Part shown: piece by piece, positions 15,761 to 35,900 of the stretch
Position numbering within the stretch: the stretch's first letter is position 1
How the letters are laid out: each line of letters opens with the position of its first letter
Origin: Tieghemostelium lacteum
Taxonomy: Eukaryota
NCBI GenBank assembly: GCA_001606155.1
Contig: LODT01000042.1
Location: 207,758-271,757, forward strand
Direction: 5' to 3'
Length of the DNA stretch: 64,000 bases
Notes under the pieces: generated by a model
Databases searched by the model: none
Seen by the model: the letters and a program-made list of their open reading frames with translations, nothing else
Told to the model about the DNA's origin: nothing
Made by a program: the position numbers and the translations under genes

Positions 15761-17251
15761 TTAGAATTGAATTTGTGATAATAGTACAACAATTTCATCA
15801 ATAACAGGTATAAGATGACCATCTGTAATCTTTTGTCCATTATTTTGGAGGATTGAAAAGAAGATGATAGGTTGATTGGCTGGTGGATCTTGAAGGTTTT
15901 GTGAAATGAGACCAGAGAGAGAGTTGACACCCATCATCGACCCTGTTTTTGCGTGTACTACACCTTGGGCTGGTGTGCCTATGAATCTGTCGGAGAGGGT
16001 ACCTGAGACACCACCAACAGGTAGATAGGAAAGGTAGTCGTGGTCAGGGTCACCAGCATTAAAGTAAATGGATTCAATAAGTTCAATGAATGCTTGAGGT
16101 GTGAAATAGTTGATTCTACTGAGTCCTGATCCATCAGCTTGATCAAAGTAGTCAGTGTTGATATTGAGAATTTCAACAATCGAATAGAGACCTTTAAGCC
16201 ATGTTTGTGTTCCTTCTGGATAGGAGTTGTAATTGTTGCTTCCGAGAAGTCTGAGGAAGGTTTCAGCATAGAGGTTATCAGAGTTCAATAGAGTGTAGTT
16301 TAACATCTCGGAAAGTGGTGGTGAGATGGTTACGTAAGATCGGTTTTCAGTGGTGTTACACAGACCATAGGCATACTCGTTAACGTATAAACCTTGCTCT
16401 TTCAACATTGCACCAAAAACTGTGAAAAAGTATTGGTCTGGGTCGAGAATGGGTATTTGGAATATATACTCACCGTCAACTCTGTAAGGAAGGTTTCCAT
16501 TAATATACACAACACCACTTGTCATTCTGAAACTCAGAGAAATGGTGTTATTTGAGCTCTCATCTGTTGTGACTGCATTGTTTACGTAGGTTAGATAGGT
16601 CTCTTCACCTGGGTTTTGGAAGCTTACAGTAGGTGCTTGTCCTAGATTTGGAGAAGGTGTCAATATGATATTAATGGTGTTCTCATTGATTATCAATGGG
16701 GTGGGAAGAGCACCGTAGGTTGATGTCAAATCTTCAAACATCCAAGTAGTGGGGATATTAAAGTTGTCATCGACGTAGAATGATGTATCTAAAATCAAAG
16801 ATCCAACTGAAGCTGCTTTTGAGAAAAACTGTGCAGCATTTGCAAGCTGCTGAGTGGTGATGGATGGGTCACCAAGTCCTTTCACACATATGTGATCCAA
16901 TTCAACCCCAGGCACAAATAATTCCTGGGTGTAAAATGGTGTCTCTATTGTATAGTCTTCTCCAAAGGTATAGAATATCGATGAGGTTGTAAATAGTTTA
17001 GTGTTACTAGCAGGTGTAAACATTTGATTTTCATTGAAATTGTATATATTCACAGGACCTCCGTTTCCAGAAGGATTATAGATATCTATAACCAAACCCC
17101 ATTCAACACCATAGCAATCATAGTTTGAACAATTGCTCAATATCCCATTAATAAGTGATGGAATCTCACTTGGTGAATAGGATTCTGATTGAACTAATCC
17201 TACTGCTACTAGTACCAATACTATCACCCAAACTTTAAAAATATTCTTCAT
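15761..17251 (-). CDS. Secreted D-alanyl-D-alanine carboxypeptidase/endopeptidase, peptidase S13 (PBP4/DacB-like), bacterial-type, intronless
   Basis: 496-aa uninterrupted ORF. N-terminal signal peptide MKNIFKVWVIVLVLVAVGLVQS. All three PBP active-site motifs are present in order: SxxK (PASNTKLFTT), SDN (LLNSDNLYAETF), KTG (VHAKTGSMMGVNS). Many NxS/T sequons. Flanked by intron-containing eukaryotic genes. Confidence 0.85.
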   Translation of the reverse strand: MKNIFKVWVIVLVLVAVGLVQSESYSPSEIPSLINGILSNCSNYDCYGVEWGLVIDIYNPSGNGGPVNIYNFNENQMFTPASNTKLFTTSSIFYTFGEDYTIETPFYTQELFVPGVELDHICVKGLGDPSITTQQLANAAQFFSKAASVGSLILDTSFYVDDNFNIPTTWMFEDLTSTYGALPTPLIINENTINIILTPSPNLGQAPTVSFQNPGEETYLTYVNNAVTTDESSNNTISLSFRMTSGVVYINGNLPYRVDGEYIFQIPILDPDQYFFTVFGAMLKEQGLYVNEYAYGLCNTTENRSYVTISPPLSEMLNYTLLNSDNLYAETFLRLLGSNNYNSYPEGTQTWLKGLYSIVEILNINTDYFDQADGSGLSRINYFTPQAFIELIESIYFNAGDPDHDYLSYLPVGGVSGTLSDRFIGTPAQGVVHAKTGSMMGVNSLSGLISQNLQDPPANQPIIFFSILQNNGQKITDGHLIPVIDEIVVLLSQIQF

Positions 17252-24830: not shown

Positions 24831-25014
24831 TTTAGTGGTTAATCAGAAAAATTTCCATCTAATATCATTATAAGAAAGTGTCCCAAGCGATGCCAAAGAA
24901 ATCGGATGAAGAGAAGCAGTTAGAGATCATGTTGAGTTCACTTAAAGATTAAGTTCAACAACTTCAACAACAAATGGAGACTAAAGAAATAAAGAGTTTA
25001 TTGGTCAAATTCAA

Positions 25015-26049
25015 TTAGTAATAGCTACTTTTGTTTTGCAGGAGTTTTTCCTCGAGTTTTGGGTGGAGGACAAATAATAGTAGTAGTGGTGGTAAGAGAC
25101 CTAGTATTCCTTTTTTTTTTGGTCTTTCTTCTTCTTCTTCTTCATCTTGCTGCTCATCATCTTCTACTTCTTCATCACCTTCTTCATTAAGAACAGATTG
25201 AGATCTTTTTCTAGTTGGTTTTTCTGCCCTTCTGCCACTTGAATACCATTGGAATAAATATCGAAATAGGTGACTGGATCGGCAAAAAAATTTAAACTTA
25301 TCTTTATTTTCTGCAATCCAAATTCCTTCTTTGAAATTTGTAATTTGATCTGAACATCCAGGTGGTTCTACACCTAATAGATTCAAATACCCATCACACA
25401 CTCTCTCCCCCACTGATGTATCGTCCACTATATCTTCATTAACATACCCATTCATCATTCTATCTTTAAAACTATAATTATCAAATGTTTTTTTTAAACA
25501 TAAGTCTATATAATTAATTAACTGATTTGATTTTGTAGAGGTGAGATCAGCTTTTTTACATATCAACAGTTTATGGTGAGAACCAACATGCACCATCGGA
25601 ATTCTACTAGTTCCAGTCTTTTTGGTGCCACAAATCACGCACATTTTACCAGCTAGTTTATTAGTTATAGTAACAAGGTCATCTCGAAATGAACTCCTTA
25701 ATTCATCTATATTTGTATTACTAAAATGTAACTGACTGTTAATATTGTTAATACCATTACTACCTAGAGTGGATGGGTTAGTATGGGCACGAGTAATATT
25801 ATTTTGATTAAAAATATTAATGTTGCTAAATGTTTGGCTATATGAAGGGTTTGAGGGTTGTGGTATCTTTTTGAACTCTTTAGTTGAATTATTTGGGTGG
25901 TAGGTTCTACCATTACATTCTATGCATGTACAGAGCCTTGGAACTCTATGTTTATCGCTAAAATCGCAAACACAACTAAAAACATGGTATAAAAAAAGTA
26001 TACTTTCTATAGATTTATTACAAAGATTACATGTTATTGTTGAGTCCAT
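25015..26049 (-). CDS. Hypothetical Cys-rich (zinc-finger-like) protein with acidic C-terminal tract, single exon
   Basis: ATG at 26049. N-terminal CNLCN...H..C.C...C.C.ECNG plus a second C..C pair (MCVICGTKK...HVGSHH). Poly-Glu/Asp tract. Atypical codons (cga, ccg, ggc) and an A11 run inside the CDS make the 3' end uncertain. Confidence 0.45.
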   Translation of the reverse strand: MDSTITCNLCNKSIESILFLYHVFSCVCDFSDKHRVPRLCTCIECNGRTYHPNNSTKEFKKIPQPSNPSYSQTFSNINIFNQNNITRAHTNPSTLGSNGINNINSQLHFSNTNIDELRSSFRDDLVTITNKLAGKMCVICGTKKTGTSRIPMVHVGSHHKLLICKKADLTSTKSNQLINYIDLCLKKTFDNYSFKDRMMNGYVNEDIVDDTSVGERVCDGYLNLLGVEPPGCSDQITNFKEGIWIAENKDKFKFFCRSSHLFRYLFQWYSSGRRAEKPTRKRSQSVLNEEGDEEVEDDEQQDEEEEEERPKKKGILGLLPPLLLLFVLHPKLEEKLLQNKSSYY

Positions 26050-26188
26050 ATTAATACATTACGAAAGTAATAAATAAAGAATATTCTTTCGTGAAGATAA
26101 ACAACTAACAATGAAAAATAATGTGTAAATTAAATTAATTAAATTTTATAAAAAAAATTTTAAATTTAAAAATTATTTCTTTTCATTG

Positions 26189-29050
26189 ATGGAATTATCA
26201 TTGATTTGTGGATCTTGTGAAAGTGAAGAAGGGATTGAATTGTTTTGTGTTGAATGTCAATGTTATTATTGCATTGAATGTGATGAATACACACATATTG
26301 ATACAACAACCTCACATCCAAATGTAAGATCACATCAAAGACCATCTAAAACAGAATACACAAAAACTTCAAAGTTTCTAGACTTTAATATCACCCAATA
26401 CACTGATGATCAATTGAAAGAATTTGATAAAAGAAATAAACTTATACAGGTTGAAGAACAAATATATAAATACTCTATAGGAACAAAATCTTTTTGTCTT
26501 AAAGAAACAACAGAATATAATATTGTTTGGAAACCTGATAGTAATCAATTTGGGTTTGATGATTCAGAAACATTTATGATGGTTAGTTTTATTGGACCTT
26601 CTGGAAGTGGAAAATCAACTCTAATTGCTCCTTTATGCAACCAAAGAGATGATAATAGTCATTCATTTCCCATTCCAGGAAGCAAATCAAATTCAAACTC
26701 AACATCATCTGATTTGAATTTTTATCATGGTGAATTTAAAACATCAGATTTTAATGAATCATTCATTGATAAACCCAATAAATTCATTATCATTGATAGT
26801 GAAGGAATAGGTGGATCTGTGATTCCAAATCAAAATTATATTCATCAAAATATTACAAATGTATGTACATTTGAAAAACTATAACACTTTATAACAGATT
26901 ACTAATATTTTATTTTATTGATTTCTTAAATCATGATAAAATATAATCCATTGATTATTCATTAATTACTCTTAAAGATGGATAAATACAACCAAAAGAG
27001 AAAAGAAGCAATGATTGTATACCCAAAGTTTTTATATATATTCTCAGATGTATTGATTTTCACATTCAATGGTGAGAAACAAGTAAAAACTGTATTTGAT
27101 GATCTGATTGAATTCAGTAACATCTCATCATCAGTATTGAATCAACCAAAACAACCACATCTTGTGATTGTATTCAACAAATCATCATTGAACAAAGAAT
27201 TTGATGATTTTGAATTCTCAACACAACACTACACTGATAATCAATTGTCACAATTCAACCAATTGAAATCATTCTATCAATCAATAACCATCATTTCTAT
27301 TCCTAATGCGAATGAAGGTGGTAATAATCAATTTCTAAGATTTCAATCACAACAAGAAAAGCTATATCAACTCATCAAGAAAAAGATGATTGAATCACAT
27401 CAATTCATTTCTAGTAAACCAACAACTATCAACACTAAATTAATGAAATTGGTAATTGATGTACTCAATAACCAAGGTAACCCTTTGAATTTAAGTACTC
27501 TTAAAAAAGTCAACATGTTAGAAGAACTAAAACCTTTTGAAGTTTTAATTAATTTTGTATTAATTCAAACAGAGATTCACTGTAATAATGATAAAACATT
27601 ATCGAAATCTAAATCACAAGAAATGGCAATTGAAGATTTGAAAAATCGATTGTATGATATTTATCTCAACATATCAGAATTTGATATTGAAAAAGCATTT
27701 TCATTTAAAATGTTCACTAAACAACGATTGGTACAATTAATTAAAGATGAATTACCATGTAATGCAAATTATCCAAATCATCCTGATATCACATGTGATT
27801 TAAATTTCCCAAGCCATTATAATCACCAATCATTAAGATCTCATAAAGTATCTCTTAGATCAAATGGGTTATTTAATTATATATATACAAATTCATTCAT
27901 GAGAGATTTAAACACAAACTACAAATGGATTGGTAAATATAGAAATGGAATTGAATTACCAGACTTCTATCAACATCTTGAACAACAAATTCAAGATAAA
28001 TCACCAAAACCAATGATGAACCAAATCAATTATATTGAAATTGAACCATTTTCACTCATGATTTGTCTTGGATGTTTAATTGAAAAACCAATTCAACGAA
28101 ATTATCCATGCAATCATTTAGTTTGTCAAAATTGTAGAGATGAAACATCAGATCCCAATTACCAAGGAAAATGTAAAATTTGTCAACAACCCACCACAAT
28201 ATCTCCTGATCGTTTGGTTGATTTTCATCCACATATTGGTTACAGAGTTTTTTCACTGAATTCTTATTTACAATGGCATTACAAAATCAGTGATCAGGTT
28301 TACGATATTCCATTTATGTATCTGTTTGATATTATCGCAATAGAGGACGGTTTTTATCGTTATGCTTTCGACTTCATTACTGGTCAATTACGTAAAAACA
28401 ATGAATTATATAACCAAGTGTTAAATGTAAAGATACTAAATTTACAAGCAAAAAAATATCCCAACCATGCAAACAAGGAATGGGTACTAAACAAACCTTT
28501 CACACCCATTCCTAATGACCGATTTTTTTATCAACAAGCTATAAAACAATTATGGCCAAAGAAGGAATCTGATATTGTTGTAGATTGTGGTTTATTAAGT
28601 GATTCAAATTATAGATTTTATTTTAGCTTTCACCAATATTCAGAGAGTTTGAATATAATCAGTAGTAAATTACTTTCATCGCTATTCTATATGGATAATT
28701 TAACAATATTAAAAAACAACAAAAATGGAATACAATTGAATGGCAGTATTAAACATAGACTTCCACATCAACTACCTGAACAAATATTAAATCAGATTGA
28801 TAATACTTCATTCACTCTCACCAATTCGGATTTGGTGAATTACAATTCACTTAAAATCTCTCCCATGATAAAAGGAAGTAATTCAATTGAAATTCCATTT
28901 ACCATCACCATGCCACCAATTATTGGTACTAAGAATCAATATCCTGTAATTGATATTCTATGTAATATTAAATGTAAACATAACGAAACAAATAACACTT
29001 CAATTTCAGGTTGTCCATTGAATTTTCAATCATTTCTCAATAAACAATAA
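26189..29050 (+). CDS. B-box zinc finger + GBP/atlastin-like P-loop GTPase + C3HC4 RING finger protein (TRIM-like GTPase E3 ligase), copy 1; exons 26189..26860 and 26978..29050
   Basis: B-box: CGSCESEEGIELFCVECQCYYCIECDEYTHID...H. G1: FIGPSGSGKSTLIAPLC. G3: FIIIDSEGIGG, followed by a GBP-like ...EAMIVYPKFLYIFSDVLIFTFNG block. RING: CLGCLIEKPIQRNYPCNHLVCQNCRDE...GKCKICQ. A 117-nt phase-0 intron (GTATGT...CTTAAAG). The real ATG is at 26189; the ORF-track start at 26186 is TTG. Confidence 0.75.
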
Positions 29051-29243
29051 AAATAAATAACAATTCTAGAGATGTAAATTAAAAATTGGTATGTTGAATT
29101 CTAATTTTTTTTTTAAATTGAACATTTTGACTAGTTATGATAGAGATCACATTATAATTTAGTATTATCCTTAATCTGAATAACAATCCTATCCTTGTTA
29201 TCTGGTAATAAAAACCTGTTTCAAAGGCCTGCAACAATGGACT

Positions 29244-29347
29244 GTCCAGTTCAGATTGTGATGTGAGCTCCTTTGGAGTTTTGAGTTCTTTGTCTACATA
29301 ATGAATACTTAATATCCTCAATTCCATTTTCTACTAAGGTTCTGACT
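29244..29347 (+). ncRNA. Copy B of the conserved ~100-nt element (see 24734..24830), located at the junction between the two duplicated genes
   Basis: Same two conserved blocks as copy A, with a 17-nt insertion in the middle. GUGAUGU...CUGA arrangement. Same orientation as copy A. Confidence 0.35.
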
Positions 29348-29541
29348 GAAAATATTCTTCCTGTTACTCCTTCTTTTGAAAGAGTGTGGATGTTGTTTAT
29401 TCCATTGAACCTGACCCCTCAATTATCATCCGTTATTATACAATTCATCTCTGTATTAAGTTATTTTTACATGTTAAGAAAGTAATAAATAAAGAATTAA
29501 AAAAAAATTTTTTATGAATTTCAAATCTGTTCTTTTCATTG

Positions 29542-32383
29542 ATGGAATTATCATTGATTTGTGGATCTTGTGAAAGTGAAGAAGGGATTGAATTGTTTTG
29601 TGTTGAATGTCAATGTTATTATTGCATTGAATGTGATGAATATACACATATTGATATAACAACCTCAAATCCAAATGTAAGATCACATCAAAGACCATCT
29701 AAAACAGGATACACAAACACTTCAAAGTTTCTAGACTTTGATATCACCCAATACACTGATGATCAATTGAAAGAATTTGATAAAAGAAATAAACTTATAC
29801 AGGTTGAAGAACAAATATATAACGACTATTTTGAAGATTCACAAATAGATGCAGAATATAATATTGTTTGGAAACCTGATAAGAATCAATTTGGATTTGA
29901 TGATTCAGAAACATTTATGATGGTTAGTTTTATTGGACCTTCTGGAAGTGGAAAATCAACTCTAATTGCTCCTTTATGCCACCAAAGAAATGATAATAGT
30001 CATTCATTTCCTATTCCAGGAAGCAAATCAAATTCAAACTCAACCTCATCTGATTTGAATTTTTATCATGGTGAATTTAATGAATCAGATTTTAATGAAT
30101 CATTCATTGATAAACCCAATAAATTCATTATCATTGATAGTGAAGGAATAGGTGGATCTGTGATTCCAAATCAAAATTATATTCATCAAAATATTACAAA
30201 TGTATGTACATTTGAAAAACTATAACACTTTATAACAGATTACTAATATTTTATTTTATTGATTTCTTAAATCATGATAAAACAATCCATTGATTATTCA
30301 TTAATTACTCTTAAAGATGGATCAATACAACGAAAAGAGAAAAGAAGCAATGATTGTATACCCAAAGTTTTTATATATATTCTCAGATGTATTGATTTTC
30401 ACATTCAATGGTGAGAAACAAGTAAAAACTGTATTTGATGATCTGATTGAATTCAGTAACATCTCATCATCAGTATTGAATCAACCAAAACAACCACATC
30501 TTGTGATTGTATTCAACAAATCATCATTGAACAAAGAATTTGATGATTTTGAATTCTCAACACAACACTACACTGATAATCAATTATCTCAATTCAACCA
30601 ATTGAAATCATTCTATCAATCAATAACCATCATTTCTATTCCTAATGTGAATGAAAGAGGTAATAATCAATTTTTAAGATTTCAATCACAACAAGAAAAA
30701 CTATATCAACTCATCAAGAAAAAGATGATTGAATCTCACCAATTCATTTCTAGTAAACTAACAATTATCAACACTAAATTAATGAAAATGGTAATTGATG
30801 TACTCAATATCCCAGGAAAACCTTTGAATTTAAGTAATCTTAAAAAAGTCAACATGTTAGAAGAACCAGAACCTTTTGAAGTTTTGGTTAATTTTGTATT
30901 AATTCAAACAGAGATTCACTGTAATAATGATAAAACATTATCGAAATCTAAATCACAAGAAATGGCAATTGAAGATTTGAAAAATCGATTGTATGATATT
31001 TATCTCAACATATCAGAATTTGATATTGAAAAAGCATTTTCATTTAAAATGTTCACTAAACAACGATTGGTACAATTAATTCGAGATTATTTACCATGTA
31101 ATGAAATACATCCAGATCATCCTGATATCACATGTGATTTAATATTAAGCCATTTTATACACCGATCATTAAAATCACATAAAGTATCTCTTAGAGTAAA
31201 TGGATTTAAATATATTTCATTCGTTAGAGATGTAGATACACCCTACATCTGGCCTGGTCAATATAGAAATGGAATTGAATTAAAATTACCAGACTTCTAT
31301 CAACATCTTGAACAACAAATTCAAGATAAATCTCCAAAACCAATGATGAACCAAATCAATTATATTGAAATAGAACCATTTACACTTATGATTTGTCTTG
31401 GATGTTTAATTGAAAAACCAATTCAACGTAATTATCCATGCAATCATTTAGTTTGTCAAAATTGTAGAGATGAAAAAACAGACCTCAATTACCAAGGAAA
31501 ATGTAAAATTTGTCAACAACCCACCACAATATCTCCTGATCGTTTGGTTGATTTTCATCCACATATTGGTTACAGAGTTTTATCACTGTATTATTTAAAT
31601 TATTGGCAATACAAAATCAGTGAGCAGGTTTACGATATTCCACTTATGTATCTGTTTGATATTATCTTATTAAATGACGGTTCTTATTTTTATCCTAATA
31701 AGATCGAGAGAGACATTATTACTGGTGAATTACGTAAATACCATGAATTAAATCACGAAGTGTTAAATGTAAAGATACTAAAAATACAAGCAAACAAGGA
31801 ATGGGTACTAAACAAACCTTGCACACCCATTCCAAATGACATAGCTAAAACTATAAAAAAAATATGGCCAAAGAAGGAATCTGATATTGTTGTAGATTAT
31901 GGTTTAGATAGAGAAAAAAGTTATAGATATTATTGCATTAACAAGGATATTGATCTGAATATAATCAGTAGTAAATTACTTTCATCGCTATTCTATATAG
32001 ATAATTTAACAATATTAAAAAACAATAATGGAATACAATTGAATGGCAATATTAAACATAGACTTCCACATCAACTACCTGAACAAATATTAAATCAGAT
32101 TGATAATACTTCAGCCATTAATAATAAAAAAGAATTAAATAAGATTGGTAATACTTCATTCACTCTCGCCAAATCGGATTCACTTACACTCTCTCCCATG
32201 ATAAAAGGAATTAATTCAATTGAAATTCCATTTACCATCACCATACCACCAATAACTGATAATCAATATCCTGTAATTGATATTCTATGTAATATTAAAT
32301 GTAAACATAACAAAACAAATAACACTTCAATTTCAGGTTGTCCATTGAATTTTCAATCACTTATCAATAATAAAAATGAATAA
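29542..32383 (+). CDS. B-box + GBP-like GTPase + RING finger protein, copy 2 (paralog of 26189..29050); exons 29542..30201 and 30317..32383
   Basis: Same domain order and motif set as copy 1 (GPSGSGKSTLIAPLCHQR, IIIDSEGIGG, CLGCLIEKPIQRNYPCNHLVCQNCRDE). A 115-nt intron at the homologous position. Several indels and substitutions relative to copy 1, especially after the RING. Confidence 0.75.
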
Positions 32384-32935
32384 CAATTCAGAATTGGACT
32401 TTTAGGTTATCTTATTTTTTTTTTTTTTTGCATGAAATGAACAAAAATCATCCTTTGTTCAAAGATAATCTCTATTTTCAGTCTACCATTCAAATAATGC
32501 ATTTTCAATGGGACAATGTGGTTTTATAACTAAAATCTGATACAATTGTACAGATTAATAATTGCTTAAAATTAATATATGCTTTCTGTATCAATCTTAA
32601 ACTCTGCAGGTCACTGTTTTTTCAAACAAACCTACAGACCAGTGATCCGGCATGAAAGTTCCTCTCGTACTAAATCATGCTGCTATTAGGTTAGTCTTAA
32701 TTAGACTCCTATATTTAATTAACATATCTCAATCTGAATTTTTAATGGTTCTAATTTTGAAGTAAATATACCATATATTGTTACAAATAATATATAAAGT
32801 GATGATGTTTGAAGGGAATATCTGCTCAAAACAAAACTATTTTAATTTTATTTTTTGTAAATTTTTATCCTTTTTAGTTTTGATGTTCAAAAAACACAAT
32901 AATTTTATTAATAAATTTAATATAGTCAGTTAACA

Positions 32936-35900
32936 ATGTTTGAAAGATTAGTAGCTGATTTACTCACTAGGTATCTAGGCGAATATATAAAGACACTAAA
33001 TACTGAGAATTTAAAGATTGGTATATGGAGTGGTAGGTAGAATGACATTAGTCTGTATTCTAATTTTTTTATTGGGATTATTAATAAACTTGGTGTTGAA
33101 TAGGAAATGTATCTTTAGAGAACTTAGAATTAAAAAAGAGAGCATTGGAGAAGTTTAATTTACCATTTACTATAAAGGAAGGGTTTCTAGGTAAACTCTC
33201 ACTAAAGATACCATGGAATAATTTAAAGACTGAACCTGTTATAGTCATTGTAGAGAATCTTTATATTGTAGCTTCTCCTAAATCTGAAAATATTGTAAGA
33301 ATCACATTTAGAATACTTGATACTCATGTAGTGGAATTCATTCATATTAATATTAATCATATATTTAGTGGGATGAAGAAGATGAAGAAATACAATATAA
33401 AAAGAAATTAAAGAAATTAAAAGTATACGAGGCAATGAAAGAGGAGAGAAAGAAACAACAGAGAAGCAGCACAGGTAATTTAAAACCAATTTCTACTACA
33501 GGTACACCAAATATTACATCTACACCTGTTAGTCCAACTTCACCACCATTAGACGGTAGTAGTATAGGTCATTCACCACAAAATGAAGAAATTGAACAAG
33601 GTAGTAAGAATAGTGACACTTTATCATCTTCTTCTAAAAGTGGTCAATTAAATACTGAAGATATGCCAGACCTTGAAACTGAAGAAAACTACACAAACCA
33701 AGAGGATCAATCAGATCAAGAAGATGATTATGACGAAGATGAAGATGAAAGTTTAGTTAACAATTCAGGTGATATTAGTAATAACAATAACAATAATAAC
33801 AATAGTAGTAGTAATAATAATAACAGTGGTGAAGATGAACAATTTAAATATGAAAATATGGCATCAACATCATTTACAGACAGTTTGAGAAATAAGATTG
33901 TAGACAATCTACAGATTAAGATTTATAATGTACATATAAGATTTGAAGACAACACAACAATACCAGATAAACCTTTTAGTTTTGGTATGACTTTGGAGAG
34001 TGTATTGGCAGAGTCTACCAATGAACTTTGGGAACCTTCCTATATACATGCCAATCATTTACTAGTACATAAACTAGTAAGACTTCAGAATCTATCAGTG
34101 TATTGGGACACTGCTGAAAGTGACCCTATACTAAAATACAATTCAATCTCTGAATTCAAGTCTAAAATGAGTAATTTGATATACGGGGATTCATCACAAC
34201 ACAGTTATCTACTTCACCCTGTATGCGGATCGTTAAAGTTGCTCATTAACAAGTCGATAGTTCCCAATAAACTGATACCGGCCTACACTTTTAATTTTGA
34301 ATTTCAGGAGATTAATTGGGAGCTCGAGATGAAACAGTATCATGGAATCATTGCATTGGCTGACAGAATATCACTTTTGAAAAAGGGTGAGAGATATAGA
34401 CGGTTGAAACCTAAAGATGGGTTAAAGGATATAAAAGCAAAATGGAGATTTGCAATAGACTGTGTAATATATGATATAAATGAAAAGCGTTCTAAATGGG
34501 TTCCTTCGTATTTCCTCAACAGAAGAAGGGATAGATTGGATTATATACACTTGTACAAGCTCACAAAGAGAAAGAAACCTTTGAATGAGCAACAAAAGAG
34601 CAGATATTCAAATATTGAAAAATCATATAGTTTTGAAGATTTGATATATTTCAGGTCATTGGCAGATGCACAGTTGAAGGGTGAAGATAGGCTGCATATA
34701 ACTCCGAGCGCGTTGTCTCCTAAGAATTCGGGAACCGGTGGTGGCGGATGGTTTAGTTGGCTGAGTTGGGGTGGAGGTGGTCCACAGCACAGCAAGGAAG
34801 ACAAACAGAAAGAGGAACAGGAGCAGCAACAAGACCTTTTAAAGATCTTGGATCTCAGTGACGAACAAACTAGAGAACTTTACAAGACTATTGAATATGA
34901 TGAACATCAAACCACATCGAATATCATCTATCCTAAAGACTATGTAAAGACTAGAATGAACTTTCAGATGCAGAGAGGGTCTGTGTCTTTCCGTCTGAAA
35001 GAGAACAACAAGCAAAATGCAGATTTGGTTATAGAATTGGTTCAAATGTCGATTAAATTGGATAAGTTTATAAAATCAATGTATATACAATCGATTTTGC
35101 AAAGTATATCAGTGAGGGACTATTTCACTGAAGGTACTGTTTATCCATACCTAATGAAACCAGTGGGAGTTGAACAACAACAAGAGGTTGGAGATGATGT
35201 ACAGCCACTCTTTGAAATGATTCTTCAACAGAATCCATTGGATTCCGATGCAAGCTACTCAGTGTTTATTGATGCTTTGCCTCTGGAAATTGTATATAAT
35301 AAAGGTTTGATGGATAGTATGTTACATTTCTTTGGAAATGCACCATCAGATACGCTGAAAGAGATTGAAGAAGCTGCTAGAAACCAAATTAAGATTTTCA
35401 AGGACAAGACAACTCTGAGAATTCAATATGAATTACAGAATCATAAAACTGTAGATTTGGATATAAATATCAAAGCTCCCCAGATTCTGATACCAGAGTC
35501 ATTGTCTAAACCTGCACCTATATTGGTACTAGATTTAGGTTCATTCTCGTTATTGTCAGTGCCAAATGACGAAGATGACGATGATTTGCAGAACCAGGAA
35601 CTTGATCTAAAGTCCAATATATTTTTTAATCAACAACAACAACAAACAAAAGAACAGACACAGCCTTCTAGCCCTTCATTAAGTGGGATCAGAAGTTCAT
35701 CAGGTATCACAGATGGTGATAACAATATGATGGCCAACAAATATTTTTATGATAGTTTTGAACTTCAATTGAAGAATATTCAGTTGTTTATCATTACCAA
35801 TGATAACTCTGATTCTCTACCTCTGATTACCAAGTTTGATATCAATTTCAAAATTTACAAATGTATTATTAAATCACAAACTCTACTGTCAAAGTTAAAG

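Follow-up and report, generated by a model that had tools for sequence, protein, structure and literature searches.

Tandemly duplicated candidate pseudo-lipase genes of a GBP-like GTPase/RING/patatin family in Tieghemostelium lacteum

What kind of protein is encoded by two adjacent, closely similar genes of the amoeba Tieghemostelium lacteum that combine zinc fingers with a P-loop domain? The genes lie in a 64,000-nucleotide stretch of contig LODT01000042.1 (assembly GCA_001606155.1, positions 207,758 to 271,757 of the forward strand), which we call the window; all coordinates are window positions, and both genes, copy A (26189..29050) and copy B (29542..32383), lie on the + strand with all of their features. 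An initial annotation had described them as tandem duplicates encoding a TRIM-like single-chain protein with a B-box, a GTPase resembling guanylate-binding proteins (GBPs) and atlastins, and a RING, and had singled out this fusion in an amoeba as unusual. After comparing both copies with homologues, domain models and predicted structures, we lean, though not strongly, towards the view that they are two recently duplicated, expressible pseudo-lipase genes of a large, uncharacterised GTPase/RING/patatin family.

Much of this view depends on the region after the RING, which had been left anonymous and which is a degenerate patatin phospholipase domain followed by a conserved C-terminal domain. 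In the T. lacteum paralog P0004 the region reads GYRVLSLDGGGIRG ... FDLIVGTSTGG ... YLDGG, a complete patatin domain that scores 96 bits with Pfam, while the window copies read GYRVFSLNSYLQWH ... FDIIAIEDG at the aligned positions, with SLNSYLQWH and IIAIEDG where the motifs would fall. The GGGxR/K oxyanion hole, the GxSxG nucleophile and the DG[GA] catalytic aspartate are all missing from copy A, copy B and a third paralog elsewhere in the genome, P0003. The segment with the catalytic aspartate is deleted in the window copies, and approximately 150 residues, about half of the lipase domain, are gone; Pfam (including Patatin, PF01734), PADLOC and NCBIfam gave no lipase match to either copy. 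The remnant was delimited in copy A at 28226..28648 (amino acids (aa) 641-781) by alignment with P0004 and the family, and in copy B at 31556-31954. It descends from a patatin domain, as it retains colinear homology with catalytic relatives: copy A matches P0004 over its full length (E 3.9e-64), and the surviving blocks include the first strand-helix-strand, GYRV.SL ... IP..LFD.I (E 6e-4), and a W...DIVV.xG strand. The C-terminal domain (copy A 28649..29047, aa 782-914, LLSSLFY ... SISGCP; copy B 31955-32380) is about 130 aa long, was recognised by BLASTP against P0004 (E 5e-12) and is kept from fungi to amoebae, with no relative in PDB or Pfam. Copies A and B and P0003 have kept all conserved residues from the B-box, the G domain, the knuckle and the RING, and judging by their lipase motifs we classify all three as pseudo-lipases.

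The canonical members of the family have the order B-box, GBP/atlastin-like G domain with a helical stalk, CCHH knuckle, C3HC4 RING, patatin phospholipase and C-terminal domain. An exhaustive hidden Markov model search with a profile running from the B-box to the RING recovered 1495, 849 and 260 cluster representatives at E<=1e-3, E<=1e-10 and E<=1e-30, respectively, many of which align along the whole profile. The breadth of the family comes from this exhaustive search, and its fungal members were found by querying with a fungal hit; a word-indexed homologue search with the N-terminal profile returned nothing new. Copy A scores 726 bits on the family profile, a value that is partly circular as copy A is among the profile's seven sequences; its full-length match to P0004 (E 3.9e-64) supports membership independently, and the alignment is colinear with P0004 and with further dictyostelid and fungal proteins of the family. 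The window copies carry the residues that are invariant across the family, namely GxxGxGKST, T-S-x-D, D-x-E-G, P..LY.FS.V, N...P.L...N and the C..C..H..H knuckle. Pfam Patatin was found in 33 of the 42 best new representatives, and nearly all 33 have DGGGxR, GTSTG and DG[GA]. For the lipase of canonical members, generic Pfam Patatin (96 bits) is outscored both by the PADLOC model 'Effector / Phospholipase' (154.8 bits) and by NCBIfam CBASS_lipase ('CBASS cGAMP-activated phospholipase'; 140 bits, below the equivalog cutoff of 200).

Among the named representatives, members occur in every dictyostelid group sampled (Cavenderia, Heterostelium, Polysphondylium violaceum, D. purpureum and D. cf. 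discoideum), in five classes of Ascomycota and in the moss Ceratodon purpureus. They are deposited under names such as 'patatin family', 'PNPLA domain-containing', 'calcium-independent phospholipase A2' and 'hypothetical', and full-text searches of a literature library for the B-box/GTPase/RING/patatin architecture found no paper describing it. By its profile matches, then, this is a large, widespread and undescribed family of GBP-like GTPase/RING/patatin proteins, and the fusion is not peculiar to this amoeba, given that the same N-terminal module is present in 849 representatives at the middle threshold. The moss protein P0054 (KC19_10G099700, 1196 aa) shows the P-loop, RING and patatin architecture, and on its account the family is predicted to reach beyond Amoebozoa and fungi. 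The G-domain module also appears to be reused in other arrangements. The Cavenderia protein P0009 (DFA_11948, 1005 aa) has several repeated modules and a B-box at aa 352-392 without a RING or patatin domain, and P0039 (DFA_02328, 1750 aa), also from Cavenderia, has two P-loop modules and a RING without lipase motifs.

Lipase motifs are also lacking in some other members. All three are absent from P0007, P0008, P0041 and P0047, which come from Cavenderia and Heterostelium, and where GTSTG is expected P0007 reads GIGCG and P0008 reads GIGTG. In a neighbour-joining tree, which carries no support values and is not relied on here, the window pair groups with catalytic P0004, P0043 and P0046, apart from these degenerate Cavenderia and Heterostelium proteins; lipase activity may have been lost more than once. 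Members encoded by adjacent genes occur elsewhere as well, as in P0053 and P0043 (D. cf. discoideum ACTFIZ_004361 and ACTFIZ_004362) and in P0005 and P0006 (EukProt gene17101 and gene17102). P0053 has DGGGTR without GxSxG or DG[GA], and tandem pairs with one impaired lipase may recur.

Single-sequence searches of Pfam and PDB gave sub-threshold matches only, and family profiles were needed to place the individual domains. The B-box-type zinc finger of copy A (26207..26335, aa 7-49) and that of copy B (29560-29688) have the spacing C-x2-C-x9-C-x2-C-x4-C-x2-C-x4-H-x6-H, which is that of B-box type 1. Single sequences score 16-17.5 bits on Pfam zf-B_box (16 for copy A), under the 24.1 cutoff. A family profile of 29 members matches CONSTANS-LIKE 2 (E 9.5e-9), TRIM28 (1.9e-5), MID1 (1.1e-4) and PML, the plant CONSTANS type being its top match, and it also matches the related ZZ domain of p300/CBP (E 3e-6). 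The B-box of the initial annotation is thus borne out by its spacing and by profile matches at E values of about 1e-8 to 1e-4. After the helical region and before the RING lies a P-C-x12-C-x6-H-x2-H (CCHH) knuckle (copy A 27755..27826, aa 484-507), recognised in the family alignment, whose two C and two H columns vary little or not at all across the family. The RING (copy A 28064..28183, aa 587-626; copy B 31394-31513) has the C3HC4 spacing C-x2-C-x11-C-x-H-x2-C-x2-C-x12-C-x2-C, and none of its eight ligand residues varies in the family sample, itself chosen by the same spacing pattern. Its family profile matches RNF4 (E 3e-12), RING2/BMI1 (1.8e-8), TRIM21 (4.8e-7) and TRAF6 (1e-6), as well as TRIM2, TRIM25 and TRIM32, so that the C3HC4 RING also holds.

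Between the B-box and the knuckle, copy A has a G domain interrupted by an intron (26564..27340, aa 126-345), with its P-loop at 26594-26617, STSSD at 26699-26713, DSEG at 26795-26806 and VFNK at 27170-27181, followed by a helical region (27341..27751, aa 346-482). GPSGSGKST, STSSD, DSEG and VFNK are present in both copies, the P-loop of copy B lying at 29935-29958. A full-length AlphaFold model had a mean predicted local distance difference test score (pLDDT) of 48.7 and was set aside as too poor. We used instead a domain model of aa 84-486, computed from an alignment of 16 dictyostelid and fungal homologues, with a mean pLDDT of 64, a predicted template modelling score (pTM) of 0.61 and a core pLDDT of 70-91; the region after the G domain forms long helices in both models, at lower confidence. 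With this model Foldseek placed GBP5, atlastin-1, GBP1 and RNF112 at the top (E 5e-7 to 3e-6), and across two structure-search programs the best matches were GBP, atlastin, Sey1 and RNF112. The model has the strand order of TRAFAC GTPases, the switch-I Thr/Ser (STSSD), DxEG, and N-K after strand 5. On a window protein Pfam MMR_HSR1 scores 21.8 bits against a cutoff of 21.9. It matches end to end (2-113 of 113), and two homologues, P0009 with 47.8 bits and P0039 with 36.8 bits, are above the cutoff. At the G4 position the proteins have hhhhF-N-K with an invariant Asn and not the GBP-type R-D, and the P-loop GPSGSGKS has no arginine that could act as a finger. These comparisons support a GBP/atlastin-like assignment at the level of the predicted fold. 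When bacterial and archaeal genomes were scanned, no relative of the G domain emerged.

Each copy is best modelled as a single gene of two exons. In copy A, exon 1 (26189..26860, aa 1-224) encodes the B-box, a hairpin and the first half of the G domain (P-loop, STSSD and DSEG), and a 117-nt intron (26861..26977, GTATGT...AG, of the GT..AG class) separates it from exon 2 (26978..29050, aa 225-914 plus the stop codon). Copy B has its exons at 29542..30201 (aa 1-220) and 30317..32383 (aa 221-908 plus the stop codon), separated by a 115-nt intron (30202..30316) at the same position and in the same phase; the products are 914 and 908 aa long. The two introns differ by one mismatch in 115 aligned bases and a 2-nt indel. 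Without splicing, the frame of exon 1 hits a stop eight codons into the intron and the G domain is severed between the DxEG motif and the fourth strand, whereas homologues align continuously over the site. Splicing is required, because the unspliced G domain is truncated where its homologues are continuous. The coordinates, intron sizes and motifs given initially agree with these models, as does the view of each copy as one gene, with homologues colinear through the intron. Spliced copy A and the T. lacteum GenBank protein P0001, named 'patatin family protein', agree at all 914 aa (100% identity). In GenBank, copy B is modelled as P0002 (920 aa), which ends ...SISGC-HCFFKQTYRPVIRHESSSRTKSCCY and implies a further intron at approximately 32340-32609 and a terminal exon at approximately 32610-32689 (region 32340-32689). 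Read without this intron, the 3' end of copy B is ...SISGCPLNFQSLINNKNE with a stop at 32381-32383, which agrees with how copy A, P0003 and P0004 end. We consider the annotated 3' intron a probable misprediction, as the unspliced end fits the conserved C-terminus.

The duplicated units span 26146-29070 and 29497-32392 and are approximately 91% identical, which fits the recent tandem duplication with a shared intron position that had been proposed. With BLASTN, 26146-28810 pairs with 29497-32113 (90.9%) and 28845-29070 pairs with 32178-32392. The 5' flank within the unit is short (26146..26188 in copy A, the unit start 26146 corresponding to 29497 in copy B), and one more block of 24 nt (26059..26082) is 95.8% identical by BLASTN to 29474-29497. 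The earlier description of a conserved promoter was overstated, since about 45 nt beside the ATG and this one block are what the copies share upstream. Between the units lies a unique spacer of about 400 nt (29071..29473) without a BLASTN match to the flanks of either copy.

How the two copies have diverged differs sharply among domains. Nei-Gojobori omega (dN/dS), computed for each domain from the codon alignment of the two sequences, stays below 0.5 in the B-box (0.44), the G domain (0.41), the helical region (0.48) and the RING (0.23). For the patatin remnant (aa 641-780) it is 2.48, with 64.3 nonsynonymous and 6.7 synonymous differences, and for the whole gene it is 1.03. When only remnant codons at least four positions from gaps are counted, 41.3 nonsynonymous and 0.7 synonymous differences are left. 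Codons that differ by a single base, a count that sidesteps ambiguity of path and alignment, number 27 nonsynonymous to 1 synonymous in the remnant and 40 to 20 in the N-terminal half (Fisher p 0.0024). The synonymous fraction expected under five mutation spectra, including an extreme A<->T bias, is 0.17-0.27 (binomial p 0.002-0.04). Purifying selection acts on the B-box, G domain and RING, and change in the remnant is accelerated above the neutral expectation. We rejected misalignment as the source of the excess, as the remnant alignment consists of runs of identical codons broken by lone nonsynonymous changes. All coding indels between the copies are in frame, in multiples of three, and the stop-free frame of 274 codons after the RING has a chance of approximately 2e-10 at 31% GC by an arithmetic estimate. 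Of the initial suggestion of diversifying selection, faster-than-neutral change after the RING is borne out; the N-terminal domains are constrained (omega 0.2-0.5).

Divergence was also said to be concentrated in the C-terminal half after the RING. This is correct for that half, but the pattern as a whole is a mosaic with further hot spots in the N-terminal part: near-identical blocks, such as 26744-27268, lie beside divergent patches at 26369-26593 and 27719-28012, in which both synonymous and nonsynonymous sites have diverged. In a three-way comparison with P0003, affinities alternate along the sequence. Because of this mosaic identity, the divergent patches and the alternating affinities, gene conversion among the paralogs is likely.

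How such proteins might work can be sketched by analogy. Nucleotide binding would drive dimerisation or oligomerisation of the G domain, as in GBPs, atlastins and RNF112 (PMC12012479 for RNF112), which would bring RINGs together and switch on ubiquitin-ligase activity. Where the lipase is intact, as in canonical members, this event would also place the CapV-like domain on a target membrane or activate it there. The window proteins would have lost lipid cleavage while keeping nucleotide-dependent dimerisation and E3 activity, and would most plausibly serve either purely as ligases or as partners, regulatory or adaptor, of catalytic P0004; the fast-evolving remnant and the C-terminal domain would then form a changing interaction surface. 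A bolder version, which we think doubtful, would make the family an ancient eukaryotic module of cell-autonomous defence or cell death, in which a GBP-like GTPase oligomerises on a target membrane and links ubiquitination by the RING to membrane destruction by a CapV-like lipase. In this version the window paralogs are sensors, decoys or regulators without an effector, and a pathogen or a selfish element would be driving an arms race at their former lipase surface.

The initial annotation favoured a narrower role, that of a TRIM-like, GBP-type, ubiquitin-coupled effector against intracellular bacteria in an array diversifying through pathogens. The identities of the B-box, GTPase and RING support it, as do an omega above 1 after the RING, a canonical lipase that most resembles bacterial CBASS immune effectors, and the recurrence of tandem or lineage-specific copies (ACTFIZ_004361/004362 and gene17101/17102). 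Nevertheless, the domains do not follow the tripartite-motif order, the genes next to the pair have housekeeping functions, and the one evident means by which the family could attack membranes is missing from the window copies; the literature searched ties no member to infection, a search on Dictyostelium defence yielding only a review that lists one DdTRIM and one DdGBP. We consider this effector unlikely as described. A role in immunity or conflict, more broadly put, is an attractive conjecture because of the CBASS-like lipase, the GBP-like G domain, the recurring tandem copies and the fast-evolving remnant. If the copies were instead decaying duplicates on their way to becoming pseudogenes, change after the RING would reflect relaxed constraint, and the lost catalytic motifs, the deletion of some 150 patatin residues, the low confidence with which the remnant is modelled and the overall omega of 1.03 would all be accounted for. 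Yet both frames are intact, with indels only in multiples of three, and omega is 0.2-0.5 in the B-box, G domain and RING. The C-terminal domain still matches P0004 at E 5e-12, and the degenerate state has outlived at least two duplications, as it is common to three paralogs. Relaxed constraint alone is insufficient, because nonsynonymous change in the remnant exceeds the neutral level rather than merely reaching it. Decay is therefore improbable in our judgement. We give hardly any credence to the P-loop domain being an unrelated ATPase of the ABC, AAA or STAND type. Searches with sequence only do return mainly ABC-transporter and AAA P-loop matches, but these cover 15-30 residues at Walker A, and on that ground we rejected an ABC-ATPase classification; the model, moreover, has the TRAFAC strand order with STSSD, DxEG and N-K after strand 5, and MMR_HSR1 aligns end to end and is above its cutoff in P0009 and P0039.

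Several observations count against the pseudo-lipase reading. Pfam GBP (PF02263) and Dynamin_N (PF00350) do not match copy A or B at E<=10, the sole Dynamin_N match being a sub-threshold P-loop in the homologue P0009 (14.2 bits). Profiles of the G domain searched against PDB gave Walker-A/P-loop matches to ABC ATPases and weak ones to septin and Sey1. The fold itself is taken from a model of moderate confidence (mean pLDDT 64, 16-sequence alignment), and we can only infer specificity for GTP, because the guanine-reading aspartate is not conserved after N-K in G4. What stands of the proposed GBP/atlastin-like GTPase is thus the fold as seen by structure searches, and not a Pfam GBP or Dynamin_N match, an R-D G4 or a P-loop arginine. 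The remnant is poorly predicted, aa 680-755 falling below a pLDDT of 50, and might be a disordered linker. The selection test compares two sequences with a mosaic history resembling gene conversion, a design in which the selected lineage and the timing are not resolvable.

Comparison with known systems sets the candidate pseudo-lipases apart from each of them. In RNF112 (ZNF179, neurolastin), the vertebrate dynamin-superfamily RING GTPase, the RING comes before the G domain, a transmembrane helix is predicted, and an amphipathic helix lies at the C-terminus (PMC12012479). In the window proteins, by contrast, the RING follows the G domain and stalk, a B-box, CCHH knuckle, patatin remnant and C-terminal domain are added, and no segment reaches a transmembrane score in a hydrophobicity scan. 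An arginine in the P-loop serves as a finger in RNF112, ATL1 and GBP1 (PMC12012479). GBPs, atlastins and Sey1 are structurally closest to the G-domain model and likewise have a large G domain followed by helices, but the window proteins have no Pfam GBP match, an N-K G4 and no such arginine, and they carry zinc fingers and a lipase remnant in the same chain. Ahead of the P-loop strand the window proteins have a hairpin, as GBP1 does. With TRIM proteins they share a B-box and a RING. The order, however, is B-box, GTPase and RING rather than RING, B-box and coiled coil, and as the N-terminal B-box (aa 7-49) and the RING (aa 587-626) are some 540 residues apart with the GTPase between them, 'TRIM-like' is not an apt description. 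TRIM23 consists of a RING, B-box and coiled coil with an ARF GTPase. Canonical members, including P0004, resemble the CBASS effector CapV in keeping an intact patatin domain that scores best on CBASS-type models; the domain nonetheless sits inside a eukaryotic multidomain protein, and in the window copies it is a remnant without catalytic residues. Neurospora PLP-1 and other fungal NLR-like patatin proteins, which have been implicated in cell death and allorecognition, also couple a patatin lipase to a P-loop NTPase, with the patatin domain N-terminal to an NB-ARC or NACHT STAND ATPase and repeats. Here, in contrast, the NTPase has a GBP-like fold and lies N-terminal to the lipase, between the B-box and the RING.

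GBPs are regarded as animal immune effectors, and patatin lipases are effectors both of bacterial CBASS immunity and of fungal NLR-like proteins. To our knowledge, dynamin-superfamily GTPases coupled to a RING are known from essentially one vertebrate protein, RNF112. B-box, GBP-like GTPase, RING and patatin domains are thus kinds already known, and what is new here is the putative pseudo-lipase members of an undescribed family. The family unites GTPase, RING and patatin lipase in one chain and is widespread, and it offers a test case of whether nucleotide-driven oligomerisation can gate both ubiquitination and membrane lipolysis, and of how old such couplings are. The window pair would amount to a natural experiment in which the lipase has been shed, the GTPase and RING are constrained and the remnant is diversifying, a pattern typical of pseudoenzymes recruited as regulators or recognition modules. 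As dictyostelids are genetically tractable, these predictions can be checked directly.

The surroundings of the pair were also inspected. The flanking genes encode the housekeeping proteins WDR11, VPS13 and SF3a60, and an Rfam search of 25000-33500 gave no match. Head to head with copy A lies a Cys-rich open reading frame of 344 aa with an acidic tail (25015-26049, - strand), which has no Pfam match and whose start codon is approximately 140 nt from that of copy A. Farther upstream, an open reading frame on the - strand (15761-17251) matches Peptidase_S13, a bacterial-type D-Ala-D-Ala carboxypeptidase family (E 2e-61), and genes of this type we take to be among the listed candidates for horizontal transfer in dictyostelids.

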